Below are positions 12,372 to 25,581 of a DNA stretch of 32,000 nt, piece by piece. Under the pieces are notes generated by a model, which saw nothing but the letters and a program-made list of their open reading frames with translations, made no database searches and had not been told where the DNA came from. A program made the position numbers and the translations under genes. Source of the stretch: Xylanibacter ruminicola 23 (GTDB lineage Bacteria; Bacteroidota; Bacteroidia; Bacteroidales; Bacteroidaceae); NCBI RefSeq assembly GCF_000025925.1, contig NC_014033.1:1950001-1982000 (forward strand). Direction: 5' to 3'. The first letter of the stretch is position 1. Every line of letters begins with the position of its first letter.

Positions 12372-14505
12372 CGCCCTTCATCTCCAACAGGTCACTTTCT
12401 TTGTAAATGATGCTGTGAAGAGTCGCCCAACGCTCGTCCTTGGGCTTGGCATTTGTAACGTATGAACGGAAACAGTTGGCAGCATCGTCGATCTTACCTG
12501 TAAACCACAGATAGAAACCATAGTTAATGCTGTCGCTATCCTCAGGGTTCTCTTGTGCCAACAGCTGATCGTACAGGCGACCTGCCTGTTCGTACTTGCC
12601 ATCGCCGGTAAGCGCCCAAGCCAACACACGCACCACATGCAGGTTATCGGCATCCTCGAAGTTCAGGCGAAACAGAATCTGTTCGGCCTCTTCAAAACGA
12701 CACAGATTGGTAAGACAGATGGCCTTGTTTAGCTGATACGATTTCTTATCGGCATTCATCTCCAGCAGCTGGTTATAGGCATCGAGTGCTTTCTCGTAAT
12801 CCATATGTTTAAACCAGATACGGGCCAAGCCTAATAAGGCACGTTCGCTCTGAGGATTCAGCTCAAGCGCCTTACGATAGCTATCCTCTACATTATCACC
12901 CAGATAGCCCTTCAGCATATAGTAATCGTAGTCGTGATACTTCTCCTCAAACCAGTTTGCTAACAAGTCCTTAGCATAATTCTTCTGGTTACGTTTAATC
13001 AGAAAAGCTACAACTTCCTTGAAATGAGCCTGTATATCGGTATTATCAAATGCGGTTCGGGTAATGAACATGCTCTGGAACGAATCCTTCTCGAAAACGT
13101 TCTTAAACTCGTTGCGGAGCGGATTAAGACGGAAGAAACGGAACATGTCCTGCAGATAGATACGACGGATATAAGCAGGGGTACTCATCTCCTCGGTTCC
13201 TAACTTCTGATACATCACGGCCTCGCCACGATCCAGCATCTGACGTACATTTTCGGGAATACCATTCAGCACAGTCTCGAAGGCCAGCAGGAACGAATAC
13301 TTATCGCTATTGCAGAACGGGCCAAACTCAAGAATGCTCGACAGGAACTTAACGTTGCCATACTTATCCCATGTGTGTGCTACACCTGGATGATCGGTAA
13401 AGAACGGTGTGAACCAGTTAGAAATCTCGTTAAAGAACGGATATCGCTTCATCTGCGAAAAACCTCCAAAGTACACATCGCTACCCTGTTTCTGCATGTC
13501 GATCATACGATGGAAGGTGTTCTCAAGTTTTTCAAACTCCTGCTCTTCGGCATCAGGATGCAGAATATCATTCAGGATATTCTCCTCGTCCTGTTCCTGC
13601 TCGTCTCTATGCTGCATCTTCTGCTGATTCTTAAGCAGCTCGGGCATAATTTCCTTCTCGATGGTGTTGCGATCCTCATCGGCACTCAGGCAATAGAAGA
13701 ACTGCTCCTGCAGCTCAATCAGTTCCTTCATGCAGTTGGGGTTCTGTACGGTTTGCTCAACCAGTGTTCGCATCTCAGGGAAGAGGAATTCCTCTAACTC
13801 GTTATCGAGCGAGAACACCCAACCAAACAAGGCTCGCTGGCGCACATATTCATCGGTCGACTGCTGGTACACATGAATAAGCGTACGGAACTTAACCATA
13901 TCGTAGCAGTTCATGGATGCTAACGTGATAGCACTTACAATGAGCTGCTGGTCGGCAGAATCAACGGTGGGCGACAACAACAGCTGCTCGATAGACTCAC
14001 CCTGTCCGTCGGTCCATAAGTCGGCAGTCAGAATGTGGGCAAAAAGCTCGGTCATCAGCTGTGTATGCTGCTGGTGCATCGCTTTGCGGCGCTCCTTAAC
14101 GGTGTGCTGAGGTTCCAGTTCCAGCAAGGCGATATCAGACACGAACTTCTCTAACTGTTCGCGAACCACCTGTACCGACCAGTCGCGCGGACTCAGATGC
14201 GCCTTCATAAAGAGCGATGCCATCAGGGGCGATTGCAGCACGCGGGCATTAGTCATCACATTGGCATAAAGCACATACATACGGTGCAGCAGCTTATGGT
14301 AAAGCTGTGGAAGTTCCGGGTCTTTGTATCCTTTACGCCAATAGTCGATCATCATCTGATAATCGGTTTTGATGGCAAACAATCGGTCGGAATTTATCTG
14401 GTGCGGATGGGCAGCCAGATAATTCTCCATATCCTTGATAGCGCACATCAGGTCCTTTCCCTCGAGTGCACCCAATACATTATTTAAAGTATCGTCTCTA
14501 AACAT
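12316..14505 (-). CDS. Tetratricopeptide-repeat (TPR) protein of unknown function
   Basis: 729-aa ORF. The C-terminal ~220 aa show repeated TPR-like A..Y..AL.L.P patterns (YRKALELNPQSERALLGLARIW, YEKALDAYNQLLEMN, YEQAGRLYDQLL). Confidence 0.8.
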   Translation of the reverse strand: MFRDDTLNNVLGALEGKDLMCAIKDMENYLAAHPHQINSDRLFAIKTDYQMMIDYWRKGYKDPELPQLYHKLLHRMYVLYANVMTNARVLQSPLMASLFMKAHLSPRDWSVQVVREQLEKFVSDIALLELEPQHTVKERRKAMHQQHTQLMTELFAHILTADLWTDGQGESIEQLLLSPTVDSADQQLIVSAITLASMNCYDMVKFRTLIHVYQQSTDEYVRQRALFGWVFSLDNELEEFLFPEMRTLVEQTVQNPNCMKELIELQEQFFYCLSADEDRNTIEKEIMPELLKNQQKMQHRDEQEQDEENILNDILHPDAEEQEFEKLENTFHRMIDMQKQGSDVYFGGFSQMKRYPFFNEISNWFTPFFTDHPGVAHTWDKYGNVKFLSSILEFGPFCNSDKYSFLLAFETVLNGIPENVRQMLDRGEAVMYQKLGTEEMSTPAYIRRIYLQDMFRFFRLNPLRNEFKNVFEKDSFQSMFITRTAFDNTDIQAHFKEVVAFLIKRNQKNYAKDLLANWFEEKYHDYDYYMLKGYLGDNVEDSYRKALELNPQSERALLGLARIWFKHMDYEKALDAYNQLLEMNADKKSYQLNKAICLTNLCRFEEAEQILFRLNFEDADNLHVVRVLAWALTGDGKYEQAGRLYDQLLAQENPEDSDSINYGFYLWFTGKIDDAANCFRSYVTNAKPKDERWATLHSIIYKESDLLEMKGVTDREIQMMIDWVDVYNA

Positions 14506-17075: not shown

Positions 17076-18347
17076 ATGACTATCAACGAATTCAACTTTG
17101 CCGGTAAGAAGGCAATCGTACGTGTAGACTTCAACGTACCCCTCGATGAGAATGGTAAGATCACAGACGACACCCGTATCCGTGGTGCCCTGCCTACCCT
17201 GAAGAAGATTCTGGCTGATGGTGGTGCTACTATCATTATGAGCCACATGGGTAAGCCCAAAGGTAAGGTAGATGCTAAGAAGTCACTCGGTCAGATCCGC
17301 GAGGCTGTTGAGAAGGCTCTGGGTGTTCCCGTTGCTTTCGCTCCCGACTGCGCTAAGGCTGCTGATGCTGCTAAGGCTCTGAAGATGGGTGAGGCTCTGC
17401 TGCTCGAGAACCTTCGTTTCTATCCAGAGGAAGAGGGTAAGCCAGTAGGTATCGACAAGGCTGATCCTGCATACGACGAGGCTAAGAAGGCTATGAAGGC
17501 CAGCCAGAAGGAGTTTGCTAAGACTCTCGCTTCTTACGCTGACTGCTACGTAATGGATGCCTTCGGTACAGCTCACCGCAAGCACGCTTCTACTGCTGTT
17601 ATCGCCGATTACTTCGACGCTGACAACAAGATGCTGGGTCTGCTGATGGAGAAGGAGGTTCAGGCTGTTGACGCCGTTCTCTCTAACATCAAGCGTCCTT
17701 TCGTTGCCATCATGGGTGGTTCTAAGGTATCTTCTAAGATCGGTATCATCGAGAACCTGCTCGGTAAGGTTGATAAGCTCATCCTCTGCGGTGGTATGAC
17801 ATACACCTTCGCTAAGGCTCACAACGGTGAGATTGGTGATTCAATCGTTGAGCTCGACAAGCTGGATGTAGCTCTGGGTGTTGAGGAGCTGGCTAAGAAG
17901 AACGGTGTAGAGCTCGTTCTGGGTTCTGACTGCACCGCTACTAACGGTCTCGACTTCGGCACTATGAGTGTTAAGGAGGGTGCACAGATCATCAACTGCC
18001 CTGCTAACAACGTACCTGCTGGTTTCGAGGGTGTTGACGCTGGTCCTGAGAGCCAGAAGGCATTTGCCGAGGCTATCAAGGGTGCTAAGACCATCCTGTG
18101 GAACGGTCCTGCTGGTGTATTCGAGTGCGACGCTTTCACCGCTGGTTCACGTGCTATCGGCGACGCTATCGCTGAGGCTACCAAGAACGGTGCATTCTCA
18201 CTGATTGGTGGTGGCGACTCTGTAGCTTGTGTAAACAAGTTCGGACTTGCTGATCAGGTATCTTACATCTCAACTGGTGGTGGTGCTCTGCTCGAGGCCA
18301 TCGAGGGTAAGGTTCTCCCTGGCGTAGCTGCTATCAAGGGTGAGTAA
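17076..18347 (+). CDS. pgk: Phosphoglycerate kinase
   Basis: Full-length 423-aa match to PGK, including the hallmarks [20 protein letters not shown] and FSLIGGGDS. Confidence 0.96.
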
Positions 18348-18382
18348 AAATCAGACACGATTCGATTTTTAAATAACCAATC

Positions 18383-18423
18383 AATGGCCGTTCTGCTTCA
18401 CAGCAGGCGGCCATTATGCTTTT
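18383..18423 (+). terminator. Probable intrinsic terminator after pgk
   Basis: Hairpin AATGGCCGttCTGC-ttcaca-GCAGgCGGCCATT followed by ATGCTTTT. Confidence 0.5.
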
Positions 18424-18518
18424 AACATGCCTTGGTCGGCACAAGTCAAGAAAATCACCAACACCGAAATGATATGGTATGGCCCCCTCACTGGCAAAAC
18501 TATCAAACTAAAAAGACA

Positions 18519-20450
18519 ATGAATAAAAGATTTTTAATTATTACTATCCTTGCGGCAGGACTGACCAACACCAGCTGGGCCGACAAACAAGAGAAGCTTG
18601 CATCGCCTAACGGCAAAATCGTAGCCAACATCAATATTGGCAAAGAGTTAACTTACAGCGCCTCGTTCAACGGCGAACAGATTCTGAAAGATTGCCCCCT
18701 TAGCTTGCAAGTTGGACAGGAATTATTGGGTGTAAACCCAAAGTTAAGCAACACAAAACGTACTAAGATTGATGAGCAGATACGACCTGTAGTGCCTTTA
18801 AAACAGACCGTAGTGCCCAACAAGGCAAATGCCTTGACGCTCAACTTCAAGGGCTACTGCGTAGAGTTCAGAGCCTACGACAACGGTGTGGCCTATCGCT
18901 TTATTATAAATAAGAAAGGTGTTGTAGATATCGTGAGCGAAGGCATTAACTACCATCTGCCCAAAGCCTTCGAGGCTCACATCTCGAAGACTCGCAACTT
19001 CAACACCTCGTACGAACAGCCTTACACGCACATCAGCACAGCTCAGTATAAGGCCGACGACGAGATAACCTATCTGCCAGTACTGCTCGAAAGTCCCAAA
19101 GGCACCAAGGTACTTATCTCCGAGAGCGATGTGCGCGACTATCCCCACACTTTCCTTAAGAGCACGGGCGCCAATGGTTTTACAGCCGTTCATCCCAAAT
19201 CGCCCGAAACATGGGAGCCACGTGGCGACCGAGGTTGGACCATCACCAAAGAGCGCAACTGCATTGCCCGTACCAGCGGACAGCGCAGCCTGCCCTGGCG
19301 TTTTGCCGTTATCGGCAACGATGCCACGATAGCTGCCAACCAGATGGAACTGGTGCTGGGCGGCAAGTGCGAACTGCAGGATGTATCGTGGATTAAGCCC
19401 GGACAGGTTAACTGGGACTGGTGGAACCACTGGACAGTATGGGATGTGGACTTTGAGTCGGGCATCAACAACGCCACCTACAAATACATCATCGACACAG
19501 CCTCAAAGTTTGGCGTAGAGTATGTGCTACTCGACGAAGGTTGGAACAAACGCGTAGAAGATCCCTTTACCTACAGCGACAATATCGATGTAAAGGAGCT
19601 GGTAGAGTATGGTGCCCAGAAACATGTAGGTGTCATCCTATGGCTGGCGTGGCTCACCGTTGAGCAGCATCCCGCCCTTATTAAGCATTACGCCGATATG
19701 GGCGTGAAGGGACTGAAGATCGACTTTATGGACCACAGCGACCAGTGGATGGTGAACTTCTACGAGCGAACAGCCCGCGAGTGTGCCAAGCATAAGCTGC
19801 TGGTTGATTTTCATGGCTCGTTCAAGCCAGCAGGGTTAGAGCAGCGCCTGCCAAACCTTATCTCGTACGAGGGTGTGCGTGGCTTGGAACAAGGCGGAGG
19901 ATGCAGCCCCGAAAACAGCATCTGGCTGCCATATATGCGCAATGCCGTTGGCGCTATGGACTTTACGCCAGGCTCAATGCAGAATGCTCAGCCCGAAGAC
20001 AATCATGGTACAGGCTCGCTACCGATAGGCGGTGGCACTCGTGCTTATCAGATGGCCCTTTACGTGTGCTTTGAGAGCGGACTGCAGATGCTGGCCGACA
20101 GTCCTACCCGCTATCTGCGCGAACAGGAGTGCACCCAATTCATAGCCTCGGTACCCACCACATGGGACGAAACCCGCGTATTGGCTGCCAAGGCAGGCGA
20201 TTACTACGTAGTAGCCAAGCGCAAAGGTGCAAAATGGTTTGTAGGCGCCATCACAGGCAGCAAGCCGCAGGATATCACTATCAGTCTCGACTTCCTGACT
20301 CGTCCTGCCATGCTCACCTCCTTCCGCGACGGACGCAACGCCCATCGCATCGCCGTAGATTACAAAAAGGAGACTCAGGAGGTGAATCCTGCCACCACGC
20401 TCACCCTCCATCTGGCACGCAACGGCGGCTGGTGCGGCTCGATAGAATAG
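18519..20450 (+). CDS. Glycoside hydrolase family 97 (alpha-glucosidase/alpha-galactosidase type)
   Basis: The start is set at MNKRFLIITILAAGL, a signal peptide. The ~640-aa body carries the YVLLDEGW and GLKIDFMD motifs typical of GH97. Confidence 0.85.
   Translation: MNKRFLIITILAAGLTNTSWADKQEKLASPNGKIVANINIGKELTYSASFNGEQILKDCPLSLQVGQELLGVNPKLSNTKRTKIDEQIRPVVPLKQTVVPNKANALTLNFKGYCVEFRAYDNGVAYRFIINKKGVVDIVSEGINYHLPKAFEAHISKTRNFNTSYEQPYTHISTAQYKADDEITYLPVLLESPKGTKVLISESDVRDYPHTFLKSTGANGFTAVHPKSPETWEPRGDRGWTITKERNCIARTSGQRSLPWRFAVIGNDATIAANQMELVLGGKCELQDVSWIKPGQVNWDWWNHWTVWDVDFESGINNATYKYIIDTASKFGVEYVLLDEGWNKRVEDPFTYSDNIDVKELVEYGAQKHVGVILWLAWLTVEQHPALIKHYADMGVKGLKIDFMDHSDQWMVNFYERTARECAKHKLLVDFHGSFKPAGLEQRLPNLISYEGVRGLEQGGGCSPENSIWLPYMRNAVGAMDFTPGSMQNAQPEDNHGTGSLPIGGGTRAYQMALYVCFESGLQMLADSPTRYLREQECTQFIASVPTTWDETRVLAAKAGDYYVVAKRKGAKWFVGAITGSKPQDITISLDFLTRPAMLTSFRDGRNAHRIAVDYKKETQEVNPATTLTLHLARNGGWCGSIE
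20427..20449 (+). repeat. Direct repeat copy 1 (GGCTGGTGCGGCTCGATAGAATA) at the GH97 3' end
   Basis: This 23-nt string is identical to 23503-23525. Confidence 0.9.
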
Positions 20451-20523
20451 CACTAACTAACAGTTTTAAGATTACATATCTAAAATTATCTCCGCCAAAC
20501 TTGTTTTTTTCGGATATTCTTTT

Positions 20524-20531
20524 TATCTTTG
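20524..20531 (+). promoter_or_regulatory. -7 promoter box (TAtcTTTG)
   Basis: TATCTTTG lies 35 nt upstream of the ATG at 20566. Confidence 0.45.
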
Positions 20532-20565
20532 TGCCCAAGAAAAAAAACAATCTAATATTAATCCT

Positions 20566-23334
20566 ATGAAAAAGGATATCCTAATAGCCGGTAGCCTATT
20601 GCTGACAGGCTGTGCCGACATAACAAACAATGTGGCAGAGAGTTTTAATAACAACCTGATTGCAGAAAACCGCTATCAGATGATTCTGGATGGCCTGCAG
20701 GTAACACTCATCATCACCCTTTGCGCCACGATTCTCGGCACACTATTAGGCGGACTGGTGTGTTGGATGCGCATGAATCGCCACAAATGGCTGCGACACA
20801 TAGCCAGCGCGTATATCGACCTGATGCGAGGCACCCCCGTACTGGTGCTGCTCATGCTGATGTACTATGTACTAATGGCGCCAATAGATGCCACTGGCAT
20901 CGTGGTAGCCATCGTGACCTTTGCCCTGAACACCGCAGCCTACATCAGCGAGATGCTGCGCACCTCCATCCAAGGCATTGACCGAGGACAGACGGAGGCT
21001 GGACTGGCATTGGGCTACACACAACGACAAACATTCATCAGAATCATACTGCCACAGGTAGTCAAGGCTGTCATGCCCGTCTATCAGGGCGAGGTAATAA
21101 GTCTGCTGAAAGGCACAAGCATCGTGGGCTACATCGCTGTGAACGATATGACACGAGCATCCGACCTGATACGCTCACGCACCTTCGACGCCTTCTTCCC
21201 GCTCATCGTCACAGCCATCATCTACTTCCTGATAGCCTGGCTCATCGGCCAACTGCTCACTGCGCTGCTGCAACGACAGCGGACCAAAGCCACAGCTGCA
21301 GCCGTCATGCTGACCCTGTCGGGGCTTGTGGCCTACGTGCCTTCGATACTAACAGATGCGCAGGCAACGACAGCAGACACAACCGACGCACCACCAGCCA
21401 TCAAGGCACTATCGGGCAAGCGCGTAGGTGTCATCATCGGCAGTATCCAAGATATTGCAGTAAGCACGATGGCGCCCGATGCCGACATACTGCGCATGAC
21501 CACCACCACCGACATGATGGCTGCCCTAGAGAACGGCAAGGTGGATGTGGCAGGCAGCGAGAGCCTCACACTGATATTCAACAAGGAACTGGCTGACAAG
21601 GTTGACTCCGTAGGAGCCGGACTTACACCGATTCCTATTGGCGCATGCTTCAACCAGAAAAATACTGAGCTGCAGCAAGACTTCAACAGTTTCCTGGCAG
21701 AAATCCGACGCGACGGCACCTATCTGAAAATATTCGACCGCTGGCAGAAATCCGACAATCCGTCGGCTATGGACATTCCACAGCAGCGCGGCACTGGGCG
21801 CACCGTGCGCATAGCCACCTATCCTGCCATGCCTCCCTTCAACTTTATCAACTCCGGCAAACCATCGGGCCTGGAAATCGACCTGCTGACAGAGTGGGCC
21901 AACCGCCGCAACTGGCAACTGGAATTCCTGGTAATGGACTTTGCCGCTCAGATACCCGCTGTACAGACAGGCAAGGCCGACATGGCCATGGGTGCCATCA
22001 GCATCACCGAAGAGCGACAAAAACAGGTACTCTTCTCCAATGGCTACATCGAGTCGCACATCGTGCTGATCACACGCAAGAATGAAGCATCAATTATCAC
22101 GAATCCGTCATACTCTTCCAGCACAGAGCACCCCACGAGCCCCTGGCCGTGGATGGTAGCAATACTTGTCATTGCCGGTTGCGGGGATTGGTTCATCGTT
22201 CGCCGCAAGCGCTACAGCCAGCGGCAGCCTACTACCAACGCACTGGAGCAGCCGAAGGATGAGAAGGAGGCCGTCATCAGCATCGCCCACATGAAGAAGA
22301 GCTATGGCACGTTTGATGTGCTGCGCGACATCAACCTTGATGTGCATCGGGGCGAAGTGATCTCTGTCATAGGGCCATCCGGCACAGGTAAAAGCACCTT
22401 CCTGCGCTGTCTTAACCTCCTTGAGCAGCCTACTGGCGGGAGCATTCTCATAGGTGGAAACGACATACTGGAACGCAATGCCGACGTGCCGCTATTACGG
22501 CGACGCATGGGTATGGTGTTCCAGTCGTTCAACTTGTTCAATGGCATGTCGGTGCTCGACAATATCTGTCTGGCGCCCATGCAACTGTTAGGAAAAACAC
22601 GGGAGGAAGCCGAGAAACGCGCTCAGCAACTGCTTGAGATGGTAGGACTGGCCGAGCGTGCCACAGCCATGCCCGAGCAACTTTCCGGCGGACAGAAACA
22701 GCGTGTGGCCATAGCCCGCGCACTGGCCATGGAGCCGGAGATATTGCTCTTTGATGAGCCAACCTCAGCCCTCGACCCCACCATGGTGAGCGAGGTGCTG
22801 GGCGTAATGACCAAACTGGCACGTGAGGGGATGACGATGATTGTGGTGACACACGAGATGCGATTTGCCCGGCAGGTGAGTAGCCGTGTACTATTCTTTG
22901 CCGATGGCGTCATCTATGAGGATGGCACCCCCGACCAACTCTTCGACCATCCGCAGCGCGAACGCACCCGACAGTTCATCCAGCAGATACACGAAATGCA
23001 CTTCCTCATCGAGACCAAGCAATTCGACTGGTATGCTATGACGGCCCAGATGGAGCAGTTCTGCCTGCATTATAATCTGCAGCGCCAGCAAATCTTTGCG
23101 GTGCTACACGTCATCGACGAGACACTGACCATCCTCGGCACTCACCCCAATACACACCTGACGCTGGCTTATTCTGAACAGGAAGACACGTTACAGTTCA
23201 TCGTCAATAGTCCTCATGCCGTCGATAGCAGCTTATTCAGCCAAGAAAGTGATGACATAGCTGTGACCATCCTGCGCAACTTCAGCCGCAACATCCATGT
23301 AGATGGCAGCACCCTCCGCATCACCATCAAATAA
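20566..23334 (+). CDS. Single-polypeptide polar-amino-acid-type ABC importer: permease, TM, permuted substrate-binding domain, TM, ATPase and an unknown C-terminal domain
   Basis: It has a lipobox-like N-terminus (LLLTGC) and a His/Glu/Gln/Arg-type permease with an EAA loop ([22 protein letters not shown]). The SBP_bac_3-like segments come next. The NBD carries Walker A (GPSGTGKST), signature ([15 protein letters not shown]), Walker B ([13 protein letters not shown]) and H-loop (VVTHEM). Confidence 0.88.
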
Positions 23335-23432
23335 GCACTTTTTGGCGGAAATACGCAATGATATGATCCAGTCCCTCGTCGAGCGACACCTTGGGCTCCC
23401 ATCCTAATTCGCTTGGCAAGTGTGATGTCGGG
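23327..23432 (-). pseudogene. 3' remnant of an NAD-dependent epimerase/dehydratase (UDP-glucuronate decarboxylase-like) gene, 5'-truncated and frameshifted
   Basis: The minus strand reads PDITLAK, then a frame change, then [27 protein letters not shown]-stop. This is the characteristic C-terminus of extended SDR sugar epimerases/dehydratases, and nothing lies upstream of it. Confidence 0.5.
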
Positions 23433-23436
23433 ACAT

Positions 23437-23526
23437 TACAAAAAGCAGGTGCAGCAAGTAACCCCATCCACCCAACTCACGCTCCACTTAGTTCGCAACG
23501 GAGGCTGGTGCGGCTCGATAGAATAA
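23437..23526 (+). pseudogene. Orphan 3' fragment of a GH97 gene (last 29 codons plus stop)
   Basis: It translates to YKKQVQQVTPSTQLTLHLVRNGGWCGSIE-stop, versus YKKETQEVNPATTLTLHLARNGGWCGSIE-stop for the intact gene at 20361-20450. I hand-aligned 68/90 identical nt. Confidence 0.8.
23503..23525 (+). repeat. Direct repeat copy 2 (GGCTGGTGCGGCTCGATAGAATA)
   Basis: This 23-nt string is identical to 20427-20449. Confidence 0.9.
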
Positions 23527-23545
23527 CTGGAAGGTAGGAAGTTAA

Positions 23546-23649
23546 CTACATAACTACATAAAATCGTTCAAAACACCTGTATATATAGGCATTACATGAG
23601 CTTTACTAACTACATAAAAACTACATTCTAACTACATAAAACTACATAG
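23546..23649 (+). repeat. Left arm: 2 abutting plus 4 phased CTACATAA boxes
   Basis: Boxes lie at 23546-53 and 23554-61. After a 43-nt spacer, four more start at 23610, 23621, 23632 and 23642, spaced 11/11/10 bp. Confidence 0.85.
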
Positions 23650-23656
23650 CATGAAT

Positions 23657-23694
23657 AGTAGCGTAAAAATTCTCTAGAGAATTTTTACGCTACT
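23657..23694. repeat. Perfect 38-bp palindrome AGTAGCGTAAAAATTCTCTAGAGAATTTTTACGCTACT
   Basis: I verified by hand that the sequence is its own reverse complement. It is centred on TCTAGA. Confidence 0.95.
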
Positions 23695-23731
23695 TAGGCA
23701 GAGAAAAATAGTTAGTACGGCACTAAGCCGA

Positions 23732-23749
23732 AAATTCTCTAGAGAATTT
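23732..23749. repeat. Perfect 18-bp palindrome AAATTCTCTAGAGAATTT, sharing a 19-nt core with the 38-bp palindrome
   Basis: The string AAAATTCTCTAGAGAATTT occurs in both palindromes. Their centres are 65 bp apart. Confidence 0.95.
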
Positions 23750-23810
23750 CTAATCGACCAATAAGGAAAAAGATAGCGAGTAAGTTAAAGAGTTTGTTAT
23801 AGTAAGGCAG

Positions 23811-23915
23811 GTAATTACTTTTTGTGCATCGAAAAGTTACTTTTTGCATCTCAAAAAGCTACTTTTTGAGCAACGAAAAGCTACTTTTTGCATCTCGAAA
23901 AGCTACTTTTCGCAG
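23811..23915 (+). repeat. Five tandem direct repeats (iteron-like) with an exact 22-bp period; consensus GAAAAGCTACTTTTTGCATC(nn)
   Basis: The TAC of the core TACTTTT(T) falls at 23816, 23838, 23860, 23882 and 23904. Repeats 2-5 carry the small dyad AAAAG-yTA-CTTTT; repeat 1 is degenerate. Confidence 0.9.
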
Positions 23916-23920
23916 GTATC

Positions 23921-24021
23921 ATGTAGATTTTATGTAGTTTTATGTAGTTTTTATGTAGGTCGAAAAATACAAAAAACCCTTTGTGTATGCGGGGTTTAAG
24001 CGATTTTATGTAGTTATGTAG
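23921..24021 (-). repeat. Right arm: 4 phased plus 2 abutting TTATGTAG boxes, mirroring the left arm
   Basis: ATGTAG occurs at 23921, 23932, 23942 and 23953, spaced 11/10/11 bp. After a 42-nt spacer, TTATGTAG occurs at 24006-13 and 24014-21. Confidence 0.85.
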
Positions 24022-24151
24022 GTCAATTGACAAAAATAAATTTGCAAATTCAAGCAAAAGAGGATAGAAATACGGTGCACGAAACAGTTTTACTCAAACG
24101 TTTACATACGATTTTTGGGGGTGTGGTGATACAATGTTGGCAGAAAGTGCG

Positions 24152-24159
24152 TATCTTTG
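24152..24159 (+). promoter_or_regulatory. -7 promoter box (TAtcTTTG)
   Basis: TATCTTTG lies 76 nt upstream of the ATG at 24235. Confidence 0.45.
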
Positions 24160-24234
24160 CATCAGCTAAACAAAAGCAGAGGCTGAGATAGCTAAACGAC
24201 AAACTACAGATCGAATATATAATAGTTAAAAATT

Positions 24235-24468
24235 ATGGGTGAGAAATTTGTTATCGGAAACCGACTGAAGGAAGAATGGATAGCGGTTCTGGATACAGAC
24301 AAGAAGATACTGGAATTTACCAGCAATCTGGTTAAAGCCCAAGAGTATCAATTGGAAGAGGACGCCCAAATGAACCTCGCCGAAATCCAAAAATCAGGTT
24401 ACTTCAGCGACCTGCAGATCTACATAAAGGACAACAACAGAGCGTACAGAATTGACGAACGCGGCTGA
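24235..24468 (+). CDS. Small hypothetical protein (77 aa)
   Basis: It is the only ORF in this region. It has an upstream -7 box and a strong downstream terminator. I recognise no family. Confidence 0.55.
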   Translation: MGEKFVIGNRLKEEWIAVLDTDKKILEFTSNLVKAQEYQLEEDAQMNLAEIQKSGYFSDLQIYIKDNNRAYRIDERG

Positions 24469-24492
24469 TTTATGATAGAGATGCGAAAAGTA

Positions 24493-24530
24493 AAAATCCC
24501 AGTAAACAACTACTGGGATTTTATTTTTTT
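24493..24530. terminator. Bidirectional intrinsic terminator between convergent genes
   Basis: A perfect 12-bp stem (AAAATCCCAGTA / TACTGGGATTTT) encloses the 6-nt loop AACAAC and is followed by A-T7. The reverse strand is followed by TACTTTTCG. Confidence 0.8.
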
Positions 24531-25581
24531 ATGCACGAAACGTTTCACGTTTCATCTTGGCATCGAAAAGCCATTTGATGATTCTGGGACAACGCAAAGC
24601 CCAGCGAAGCAGTCGCCATCCGATAGGACTGAAAAAGAACTCGTACACCTTCTTCTGATGCTCCATCTTGCGAAACTCCTCCTTATTGGTTTCGCTGAAC
24701 GAGCGTCCCTCAACAATAGCACGCTTGGCATTGGCCGCGGTTTTAAAGGCATCGTAAAGTCCCTCGCCCGTAAGCTTATTGGCAAATCCACCAGCATCGC
24801 CAATCAATATCACATTATCGGCTGTATGGGGCACCGTATCAAGCTGGATATAGGCGCCGCAGATGCGATCTACGGGCACGCCAAACTTGGTAAGCGCCTG
24901 CTTGAAGCCTGCCTTATGGCGGGGCATATCGTCGTTGGTTTCGACCGAGGCATAACCATACATATCGCGCCCTACACTCGAGAACTTATAGAATACGCCG
25001 GGACGATAGTTGTTTGAGAAGTGTACAAACACATCATCGCTCTCCTTACCTTCGTCGAACTGCTCGAGGAACATGGCCCGCAACTTGGAATCGCCATGAA
25101 TCTGCTGACGAATCTGACTGTTAGAACCATCGGCTGCCACCAGATAACGACACGAAATCTGCTCACCCGATTTGAGGGTAACAAGCACCTGTCCGTCGGC
25201 CTGCTGATCAAAGCGGGCAAACGAACCTTTCATCAGCTCGCCACCGTGGTCCAAGTAATACTGCAACAACGAATAGTCGAAGTCCTTACGTCGCGTCATG
25301 CGGATAGGATATTCGGCCTGAAACTCGCAAACGGCATCGTTCTCGAACTGACAACGCATGCGGGTGATGGGGCGATAGTTATACTGAATGCCAGGCAGCA
25401 GCATATCCAACAGTCGCCAGGCCTTAACCGTAAGTCCACCACCGCAAACCTTATCGCGGGGGAACGTGGCCTGATCAACTATCAAACATTCAACACCTGC
25501 CTGCTTTAACAGACTACCACAAACGGAGCCGGCAGGACCGGCTCCGATTATCAACACATCAATATGTCTTTTATTCTCCAT
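24529..25581 (-). CDS. FAD-dependent oxidoreductase, geranylgeranyl-reductase family
   Basis: The N-terminal dinucleotide-binding motif is DVLIIGAGPAGSVCGSLL, followed by RDKVCGGGLT. Length is 350 aa, and the start lies 2 nt after the mutB stop. Confidence 0.85.
   Translation of the reverse strand: MENKRHIDVLIIGAGPAGSVCGSLLKQAGVECLIVDQATFPRDKVCGGGLTVKAWRLLDMLLPGIQYNYRPITRMRCQFENDAVCEFQAEYPIRMTRRKDFDYSLLQYYLDHGGELMKGSFARFDQQADGQVLVTLKSGEQISCRYLVAADGSNSQIRQQIHGDSKLRAMFLEQFDEGKESDDVFVHFSNNYRPGVFYKFSSVGRDMYGYASVETNDDMPRHKAGFKQALTKFGVPVDRICGAYIQLDTVPHTADNVILIGDAGGFANKLTGEGLYDAFKTAANAKRAIVEGRSFSETNKEEFRKMEHQKKVYEFFFSPIGWRLLRWALRCPRIIKWLFDAKMKRETFRA

Follow-up and report, generated by a model that had tools for sequence, protein, structure and literature searches.

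How a glycoside hydrolase gene of family GH97 came to be followed by a second, downstream copy of its own 3′ end is the question raised by a 32-kb window of the Xylanibacter ruminicola 23 chromosome (NC_014033.1, positions 1,950,001 to 1,982,000; "the window" is this whole stretch of 32,000 nt, and positions are counted from its first letter). A gene for an ABC transporter lies between the two copies. A preliminary description of the window had read the repeat as the trace of site-specific integration into a gene terminus, with recombination between paralogous genes as an alternative. Our comparison with related loci points to another history. The downstream copy appears to be the original end of GH97, displaced by an insert that carried a replacement end; the insert was probably anchored by homology, through a single crossover or homology-facilitated illegitimate recombination (HFIR), then shortened by deletions and spread by homologous recombination.

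The repeat itself is as the preliminary description had reported it, since its identity count, preserved reading frame and identical run were all confirmed by alignment and translation. Pairwise comparison of the two 90-nt stretches (20361-20450 and 23437-23526) gave 68 identities in 90 positions, and their in-frame translations were YKKETQEVNPATTLTLHLARNGGWCGSIE and YKKQVQQVTPSTQLTLHLVRNGGWCGSIE, respectively, each ending at a stop codon. The repeat finder matched 20359-20449 to 23435-23525 with 70 identities in 91 positions (77%) at a spacing of 3076 nt, and BLAST of the two copies gave E = 1e-12. Just before the last base of the stop codon 23 nt are fully identical (20427-20449 and 23503-23525).

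The origin of the downstream copy, hereafter the relic, was addressed by comparison with nine related loci, on which the whole series of alleles described here rests (L003, L004, L005, L082, L086, L087, L088, L090 and L091). Locus L090 of the sister lineage was retrieved by searching with a degenerate pattern that covers the end of the relic and the adjoining flank. It consists of the end of pgk, a small gene and one full-length GH97, and is collinear at 95% identity with L005, a second locus of that lineage. The L090 GH97 carries the relic-type end (..GGTACGCAACGGTGGC..TTCGAATAA), including the last 41 nt (..CATCTGGTACGCAACGGTGGCTGGTGCGGCTCGTTCGAATAA), and is followed directly by CTGGGATACTGGG.. 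and a WYL gene. This downstream sequence is the same as that found after the relic in L005, L082, L089 and L091, and the relic ends of L003 and L091 are identical to the end of the L090 gene. We take L090 to be the empty-site allele that the preliminary description had predicted. The relic of the window was 92.7% identical to the end of the L090 gene versus 77% to its own functional copy, and the relic matched the sister-lineage orthologue at 92-94% (93-94% for the functional copy of L005). From these comparisons the downstream copy appears to be the orthologous original end of GH97, now a non-functional relic, and the repeat is an evolutionary scar rather than a working device.

The end of the functional gene is of a different type. 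A 41-nt stretch at this end, common to the functional copies (Table 1), is present in the same type in the functional GH97 end of L082 and is lacking in the L090 gene; outside it the window and L005 differ at about 15% of positions over the rest of GH97. We read this stretch either as a replacement end carried by the insert or as the zone of the crossover. Because the functional copies share an end that L090 lacks, the insert would have brought a replacement end and displaced the original one, which bears out the earlier proposal of an insertion into the GH97 terminus with replacement of the gene end. A divergent patch of the functional copy, at -159 to -39, was also considered as imported DNA; this was rejected because its 76% identity to L005 falls within the range of the whole gene (65-95% per 60 nt).

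The related loci retain the inserted segment and the relic to different extents. In strain D31d (L003), pgk and GH97 are followed by the ABC gene, a complete gene for UDP-glucuronate decarboxylase (UXS), a cupin relic and a GH97 relic of 306 nt, which corresponds in frame to GH97 residues 542-643 and is 85% identical to the functional copy of the same locus. Around position 16023 of L003, codon ~22 of the cupin gene is joined to codon 542 of GH97, a joint that lies inside a gene and is not the end of an element. Strain Ga6B6 (L004) has the ABC gene, a UXS relic of 59 codons and a GH97 relic of 128 nt, and the window shares with L086, L087 and L088 the joint 23434/23435 and a relic of 91 nt. 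The sister-lineage locus L005, about 86% identical in its flanking genes, has no ABC gene; it has a complete UXS gene, the last 8 cupin codons and a GH97 relic of 68 nt. L082 retains 38 cupin codons, and its GH97 relic measures about 10 nt. L091 combines sister-lineage flanks with a 128-nt relic and the same two-step deletion as L004 (98% identity over 320 nt). The joints of this two-step deletion lie at the short direct repeats GGATGACCTT and ACAC, and an internal cupin deletion in L003 lies at the short direct repeat CATCCTG.

The downstream copy in the window is bounded on its left by a deletion joint; lost with the deletion were the 5′ part of UXS with its promoter, the cupin relic and some 215 nt of the GH97 relic. 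Because such joints differ between lineages, the 91-nt length of the repeat is a product of later decay and does not mark a recombination site. The 23-nt identity is likewise not a conserved core, because L086, which has the joint of the window, carries a relic whose 3′ half is of the functional type, and this indicates gene conversion between the two copies. The two copies of L005 differ at 5 positions within the last 41 nt. The flank behind the L003 relic looks different because about 300 nt have been deleted there at a TCGAA microhomology. A metagenome scan with a 24-mer from the UXS-cupin spacer gave no match. On the metagenome contig that holds L082 (84-380, reverse complement) the functional GH97 is itself deleted to its last 88 nt, which are fused in frame to a lipoprotein-type signal peptide (MAACCLLTTITLNSC..), and UXS alongside is intact; the locus thus loses genes on both sides of the insert.

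Divergence at third codon positions indicated that the insert and its flanks differ in age. Between L003 and L005 it was 2.9% for UXS versus 30.6% for radA, 16.0% for pgk and 32.9% for GH97, and among strains of the lineage of the window it was 0.9-1.0% for the ABC gene versus 2-17% for radA, pgk and GH97. Overall, values were 1-3% in the insert versus 2-33%, mostly 5-33%, in flanking genes. In the comparison with Ga6B6 (L004), a nearly identical block extends from the last ~135 nt of GH97 through the relic and about 190 nt beyond it (Table 1), and its flanks are mostly 89-97% identical. On these divergence data, and not on composition, the insert is a young block, much younger than its flanks. 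The block of identity, together with the deletion common to L004 and L091 in different flanks, demonstrates exchange of the block between genomes through homologous recombination.

Composition had been put forward in the preliminary description as evidence of foreign origin. Its three counts for 100-nt samples were exact, 64% GC at 21241-21340 and 61% at 22601-22700 inside the ABC gene and 46% at 19501-19600 inside GH97, but these samples are extremes, and the ranges of 100-nt windows overlap (0.42-0.63 inside the ABC gene, 0.42-0.62 inside GH97). The whole genes have GC contents of 54.6% (ABC) and 52.5% (GH97), and the window has 49.1%. The enrichment of CGG, GGG and CCG codons that had been noted by eye was real: together they reach 22.8 per 1000 codons in the ABC gene versus 0-9.7 in the other 17 window genes. 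In the window no gene is richer in GC or more atypical in codon usage than the ABC gene, whose GC content at third codon positions is 66.4% and whose tetranucleotide distance is the largest. In three other species the homologues lie 3.5-5.5 GC points above their host loci and are rich in the same codons. Because the homologues deviate likewise in other hosts, this deviation appears to be a family trait in every host species and is probably no sign of recent foreign origin.

The course of events that we consider probable has three steps. In the first, a foreign segment would have entered a chromosome of the X. ruminicola group at the 3′ end of GH97, carrying a short GH97 3′ end, UXS and a 5′-truncated cupin gene; the fused ABC transporter was probably part of it as well. 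To enter, the segment would have needed one homologous crossover within the last ~45 nt of GH97 and one illegitimate joint where cupin codon ~22 meets GH97 codon 542, and it could have come as a circularised fragment by a Campbell-type single crossover or as a linear fragment by HFIR; the two routes appear to fit the sequences alike. The incoming end would have kept the GH97 frame intact, and the original last 306 nt would have been shifted downstream with the original 3′ flank. The second step is seen in the alleles themselves: deletions that arose independently, two or more of them at short direct repeats, trimmed the redundant UXS, cupin relic and GH97 relic to an extent that varies by strain, and what the window keeps is the ABC gene, a 108-nt piece of UXS and a GH97 relic of 91 nt. 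The third step is shown by the divergence patterns: the block spread between strains and between two species-level lineages through ordinary homologous recombination, with GH97 homology as the anchor and with occasional gene conversion between the two copies. We favour insertion anchored by homology because the duplication comprises at least 306 nt, one joint lies inside a truncated cargo gene, the displaced end keeps its original flank and the functional copy is a hybrid, and because there is no integrase and the length of the repeat varies between genomes.

Integrase-borne genomic islands insert in the 3′ ends of tRNA or protein genes, and the locus resembles them in its replacement gene end, in the direct repeat of the target 3′ end and in the occurrence of both empty and occupied alleles. 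It would then be a non-autonomous islet mobilised by an integrase acting in trans on a core at the GH97 stop codon, as the preliminary description had proposed. The 23 identical nt in both window copies agree with this proposal, and repeated targeting may be seen in the same terminus of the sister lineage, which abuts a 5,272-bp segment with a WYL regulator. However, the duplicated stretch is at least 306 nt of diverged homology and not a short core, the far joint truncates the cupin gene at codon ~22, and the identical run varies between genomes and in L086 arises from gene conversion. There is no att core at constant positions, as the repeat measures 306, 128, 91, 68 or about 10 nt depending on the genome. 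No recombinase was detected in the window or in the tested open reading frames (ORFs) of the L005 island with Pfam, PHROGs and PADLOC; for the window, a Pfam search of 20 ORFs (the main ORF per position and a 77-aa ORF at 24235-24468) gave no integrase, resolvase or transposase, and the 32 kb hold no tRNA genes. The empty site is the only specific hallmark of a trans-acting integrase that was found, and it is expected under models of homologous recombination too and could also arise by reversion. The locus thus differs from integrase-borne islands in lacking an integrase, a constant repeat length and a conserved core, and in having a boundary that cuts a cargo gene, and we regard site-specific integration as unlikely.

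A duplication in situ is a further rival explanation. A tandem duplication could have spanned GH97 codon 542 to cupin codon ~22, or two full GH97 genes could have stood around the cargo, with a later deletion of the second cargo copy or of the 5′ parts of the divergent cupin and the second GH97. The joint of two 5′-truncated divergent genes in L003 is what a single deletion or a tandem duplication would leave, and the relic is 93-94% identical to the functional copy of L005. Yet the sequences after the two stop codons diverge within 0-4 nt (CACTAAC.. in the window and CCTAC.. in L005 after the functional stop, CTGG.. after the relic stop), and the sequence after the relic equals the flank in the empty-site allele. 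This difference makes tandem duplication the less parsimonious model, for it requires an additional deletion starting exactly at the stop codon; the end type of the functional copies is also absent from L090, and the cargo is far younger than the flanks. We consider this explanation improbable. Recombination between GH97 paralogues, the other mechanism that the preliminary description had offered, would derive the downstream fragment from another family member. GH97 is present in several copies in many Bacteroidota, and the two window copies are only 77% identical. This divergence is, however, the ordinary divergence of a single orthologue between lineages, and the relic, at 92-94% identity to the sister-lineage orthologue and with the end and flank of L090, is the orthologous end, which contradicts an origin from a paralogue and makes it extremely improbable.

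Several points weigh against insertion anchored by homology as we propose it. No donor genome was found with GH97, UXS, a full-length cupin gene, possibly the ABC gene, and no relic; UXS or ABC adjoined GH97 in none of 64 other GH97 loci, and the contexts of three ABC homologues and one UXS homologue revealed no donor arrangement. L090 could be a revertant from recombination between the repeats instead of the ancestral empty state, although on both readings it is the relic, not the functional end, that goes with the downstream flank. The ABC gene either came with the first insert, as its link with the cupin gene suggests, and was lost in the sister lineage, or it came later, and its junction sequences fit both. 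The repeat copies are mosaics of several sequence types, so that the exact crossover point and the direction of transfer between lineages are at best probable. The sequence data may also be compatible with a recombinase acting in trans.

Insertion anchored by homology has close counterparts among known systems. In Escherichia coli, a single crossover with a circular molecule carrying a 3′ fragment of lacZ gave gene-end duplications of 109-950 bp (PMC3240628), a range that covers the 306 nt of L003. Such Campbell-type insertion-duplication has in common with the GH97 locus a direct 3′-end duplication of hundreds of bp around inserted DNA, an upstream copy that completes the gene and a downstream copy that is 5′-truncated at the closure joint of the circle. 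The GH97 event differs in being natural and old, with a circle and a donor that we infer and with copies that were later altered by divergence, gene conversion and trimming. For type VI secretion system (T6SS) and Rhs loci, HFIR has been put forward as an explanation of displaced 3′ ends (PMC5361080, whose reference list gives de Vries & Wackernagel 2002, Prudhomme et al. 2002 and Meier & Wackernagel 2003 as primary references). It shares with our locus a sole homologous anchor, here GH97, one illegitimate joint in the foreign DNA and no need of a recombinase or att site; classical HFIR, however, usually deletes recipient DNA beside the anchor, whereas recipient DNA is duplicated at the GH97 locus. 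In the displacement arrays of Rhs, contact-dependent inhibition (CDI) and T6SS effectors, as described in PMC5361080 and in Jackson et al. 2009 as cited there, an incoming end likewise leaves the old 3′ end as an orphan downstream, and the outcome then spreads by homologous recombination. The GH97 locus differs from these arrays in having no toxin-immunity logic and a single displaced end, and in concerning a housekeeping-type glycoside hydrolase whose new end encodes essentially the same C-terminus.

The coordinates of the features are collected in Table 1.

Table 1. Features of the GH97 locus in the window and the evidence on which each was placed
Feature	Position	Strand	Basis
Functional GH97 glycoside hydrolase gene, 643 aa from ATG 18519	18519-20450	+	Pfam GH97_N, Glyco_hydro_97 and GH97_C all match
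Young haplotype block, 98.5-100% identical to Ga6B6 (L004)	20316-23715		Identity in 200-nt windows
Left repeat copy, 3′ end of functional GH97	20359-20449	+	Pairwise comparison, repeat finder, BLAST
41-nt stretch CTCCATCTGGCACGCAACGGCGGCTGGTGCGGCTCGATAGA, putative replacement end or crossover zone	20406-20446	+	Same in functional copies of window, L003, L004, L005
Spacer 5′ of ABC gene with Bacteroidota-type -7 element TATCTTTG, putative promoter	20451-20565	+	Sequence
Intact cargo gene, single-chain amino-acid-type ABC transporter, 922 aa	20566-23334	+	Pfam: permease, SBP_bac_3 and ATPase, then C-terminal tail
3′ relic of UDP-glucuronate decarboxylase gene (UXS, SDR family), 108 nt, ~35 codons	23327-23434	-	Translation
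Deletion joint specific to the strain lineage	23434-23435		Identical joint in L086, L087, L088; other joints in L004/L091, L005, L082
GH97 relic, displaced original 3′ end, last 29 codons and stop, outside any gene	23435-23526	+	Comparative loci
CTGG, original 3′ flank of GH97, last sequence in common with sister lineage	23527-23530		Comparison with L005, L090

The bracketed DNA is not a single-gene insert, as had been stated, since a UXS relic lies on the opposite strand after the ABC gene. This relic is 97-99% identical to the complete UXS genes of L003 and L005 and is 5′-truncated exactly where the GH97 fragment starts, at 23434/23435; it has an additional 2-nt deletion, and its stop codon overlaps that of the ABC gene by 8 nt. 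The cupin relic that lies between UXS and the GH97 relic in L003 has 88% protein identity to a cupin_2 gene of locus L070, which stands directly upstream of an ABC homologue there and also in L071-L073, near-identical copies of one locus. ABC homologues are common across Prevotellaceae (71-77% identity), and a secreted cupin_2 gene adjoined the homologue in 2 of the 3 loci examined. Elsewhere, UXS was found between aroB and the gene of a TonB-dependent receptor, and ABC after a cupin gene or GH43. A single inversion was considered for the opposite orientation of cupin and ABC around UXS, and is possible. Fusions of permease, solute-binding protein and ATPase of the ABC kind are unusual, and the C-terminal tail of the protein, about 170 aa, is conserved and has no Pfam match.

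The spacer that precedes the ABC gene is conserved at 95-97% in L003 and L004; L005 lacks it at this position. Part of it (20482-20542, including the -7-like element TATCTTTG) is 79% identical over 61 nt to L005 9275-9335, the upstream region of a small membrane-protein gene that lies between pgk and GH97 in L005 and L090 and is not present in the window; the two upstream regions may represent a shared promoter module. An imperfect direct repeat, AATAGCACT at 20445-20453 and AATAAGCACT at 23331-23340, was seen at both edges of the ABC segment. It may be the microhomology for insertion of ABC, or for its deletion in the sister lineage, and is not statistically compelling.

The GH97 gene itself was called with 643 aa in the source genome, and the mechanically derived ORF, from TTG 18432, has 672 aa. 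Orthologues were found in 67 species-level loci, GH97 adjoins pgk only in the ruminicola clade, and the closest relatives of the window are Xylanibacter (Prevotella) ruminicola strains. The nearest outgroup GH97 (L083-L085, 82% amino-acid identity) lies in a glycan-degradation cluster of the order GH92/GH125-GH97-GH38-GH3. Because the closest GH97 outside the clade sits in such a cluster, the position of GH97 beside pgk is itself a relocation; the outgroup cluster (GH125-GH97-GH38-GH3) was uninformative on the insert.

A second, unrelated insert was found at the same GH97 terminus in the sister lineage, in addition to the block of ABC, UXS and cupin. In L005 a perfect 25-nt direct repeat (GAATAACTGGGATACTGGGATTTGG; 13058-13082 and 18330-18354) surrounds the 5,272-bp segment, which holds some 8 small unknown ORFs, one of them DUF6140, besides a WYL/WCX regulator, and the first 25-nt copy overlaps the stop codon of the GH97 relic. 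This 5.3-kb segment, in which Pfam, PHROGs and PADLOC detected no recombinase, looks like a second, att-like insertion. It seems very unlikely that the last few dozen bases of GH97, with their TAACTGG flank, are a site where cassettes without an integrase insert repeatedly in rumen Prevotellaceae, mobilised by a recombinase or another factor encoded elsewhere.

Directly after the relic, the window contains an AT-rich (34-39% GC), highly structured spacer (23531-24230) that holds all 7 exact ACTACATAA sites of the 32 kb, 4 on the plus strand at 23545-23649 and 3 on the minus strand, plus 2 with one mismatch, at 23930-24022. Between these arms lie a perfect 38-nt palindrome (23657-23694) and 4.5 tandem units of 22 nt (TACTTTTTGnnnnnCGAAAAGC, 23816-23914); in L003 the 22-nt units are kept and both ACTACATAA arms are absent. 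An Rfam search of 18000-25000 (E ≤ 1) gave only chance miRNA-like matches on palindromes and none for the spacer, and a scan for sigma-70 promoters and terminators gave sites no more frequent than in shuffled sequence. The spacer could be a regulator-binding array, an element like a miniature inverted-repeat transposable element or an invertible segment. The 77-aa ORF that follows it (24235-24468) matches no Pfam family and is conserved in L003 and L088 (90% amino-acid identity in L088), and a strong hairpin terminator lies 3′ of it at 24493-24522.

The GH97 scar is an ordinary, known kind of genome scar that is well resolved here, and not a new mobile element. For annotation it is a caution that direct repeats of a gene 3′ end around DNA of higher GC content do not alone imply an integrase-borne island. 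An alignment of this locus can bring together alleles that are occupied, decayed, empty or transferred between lineages, and from them one can read directly, in rumen Prevotellaceae, in what order and with what relative timing the insertion, the deletions, gene conversion and spread by recombination took place. In compact form, the locus records a natural case of gene gain by a bacterial chromosome that would need no machinery of a mobile element: a single homologous crossover in a conserved gene tail would capture foreign DNA, the incoming end would repair the gene, and the old end would stay behind as a dated scar. In rumen Prevotellaceae, such genome plasticity matters for the digestion of fibre.

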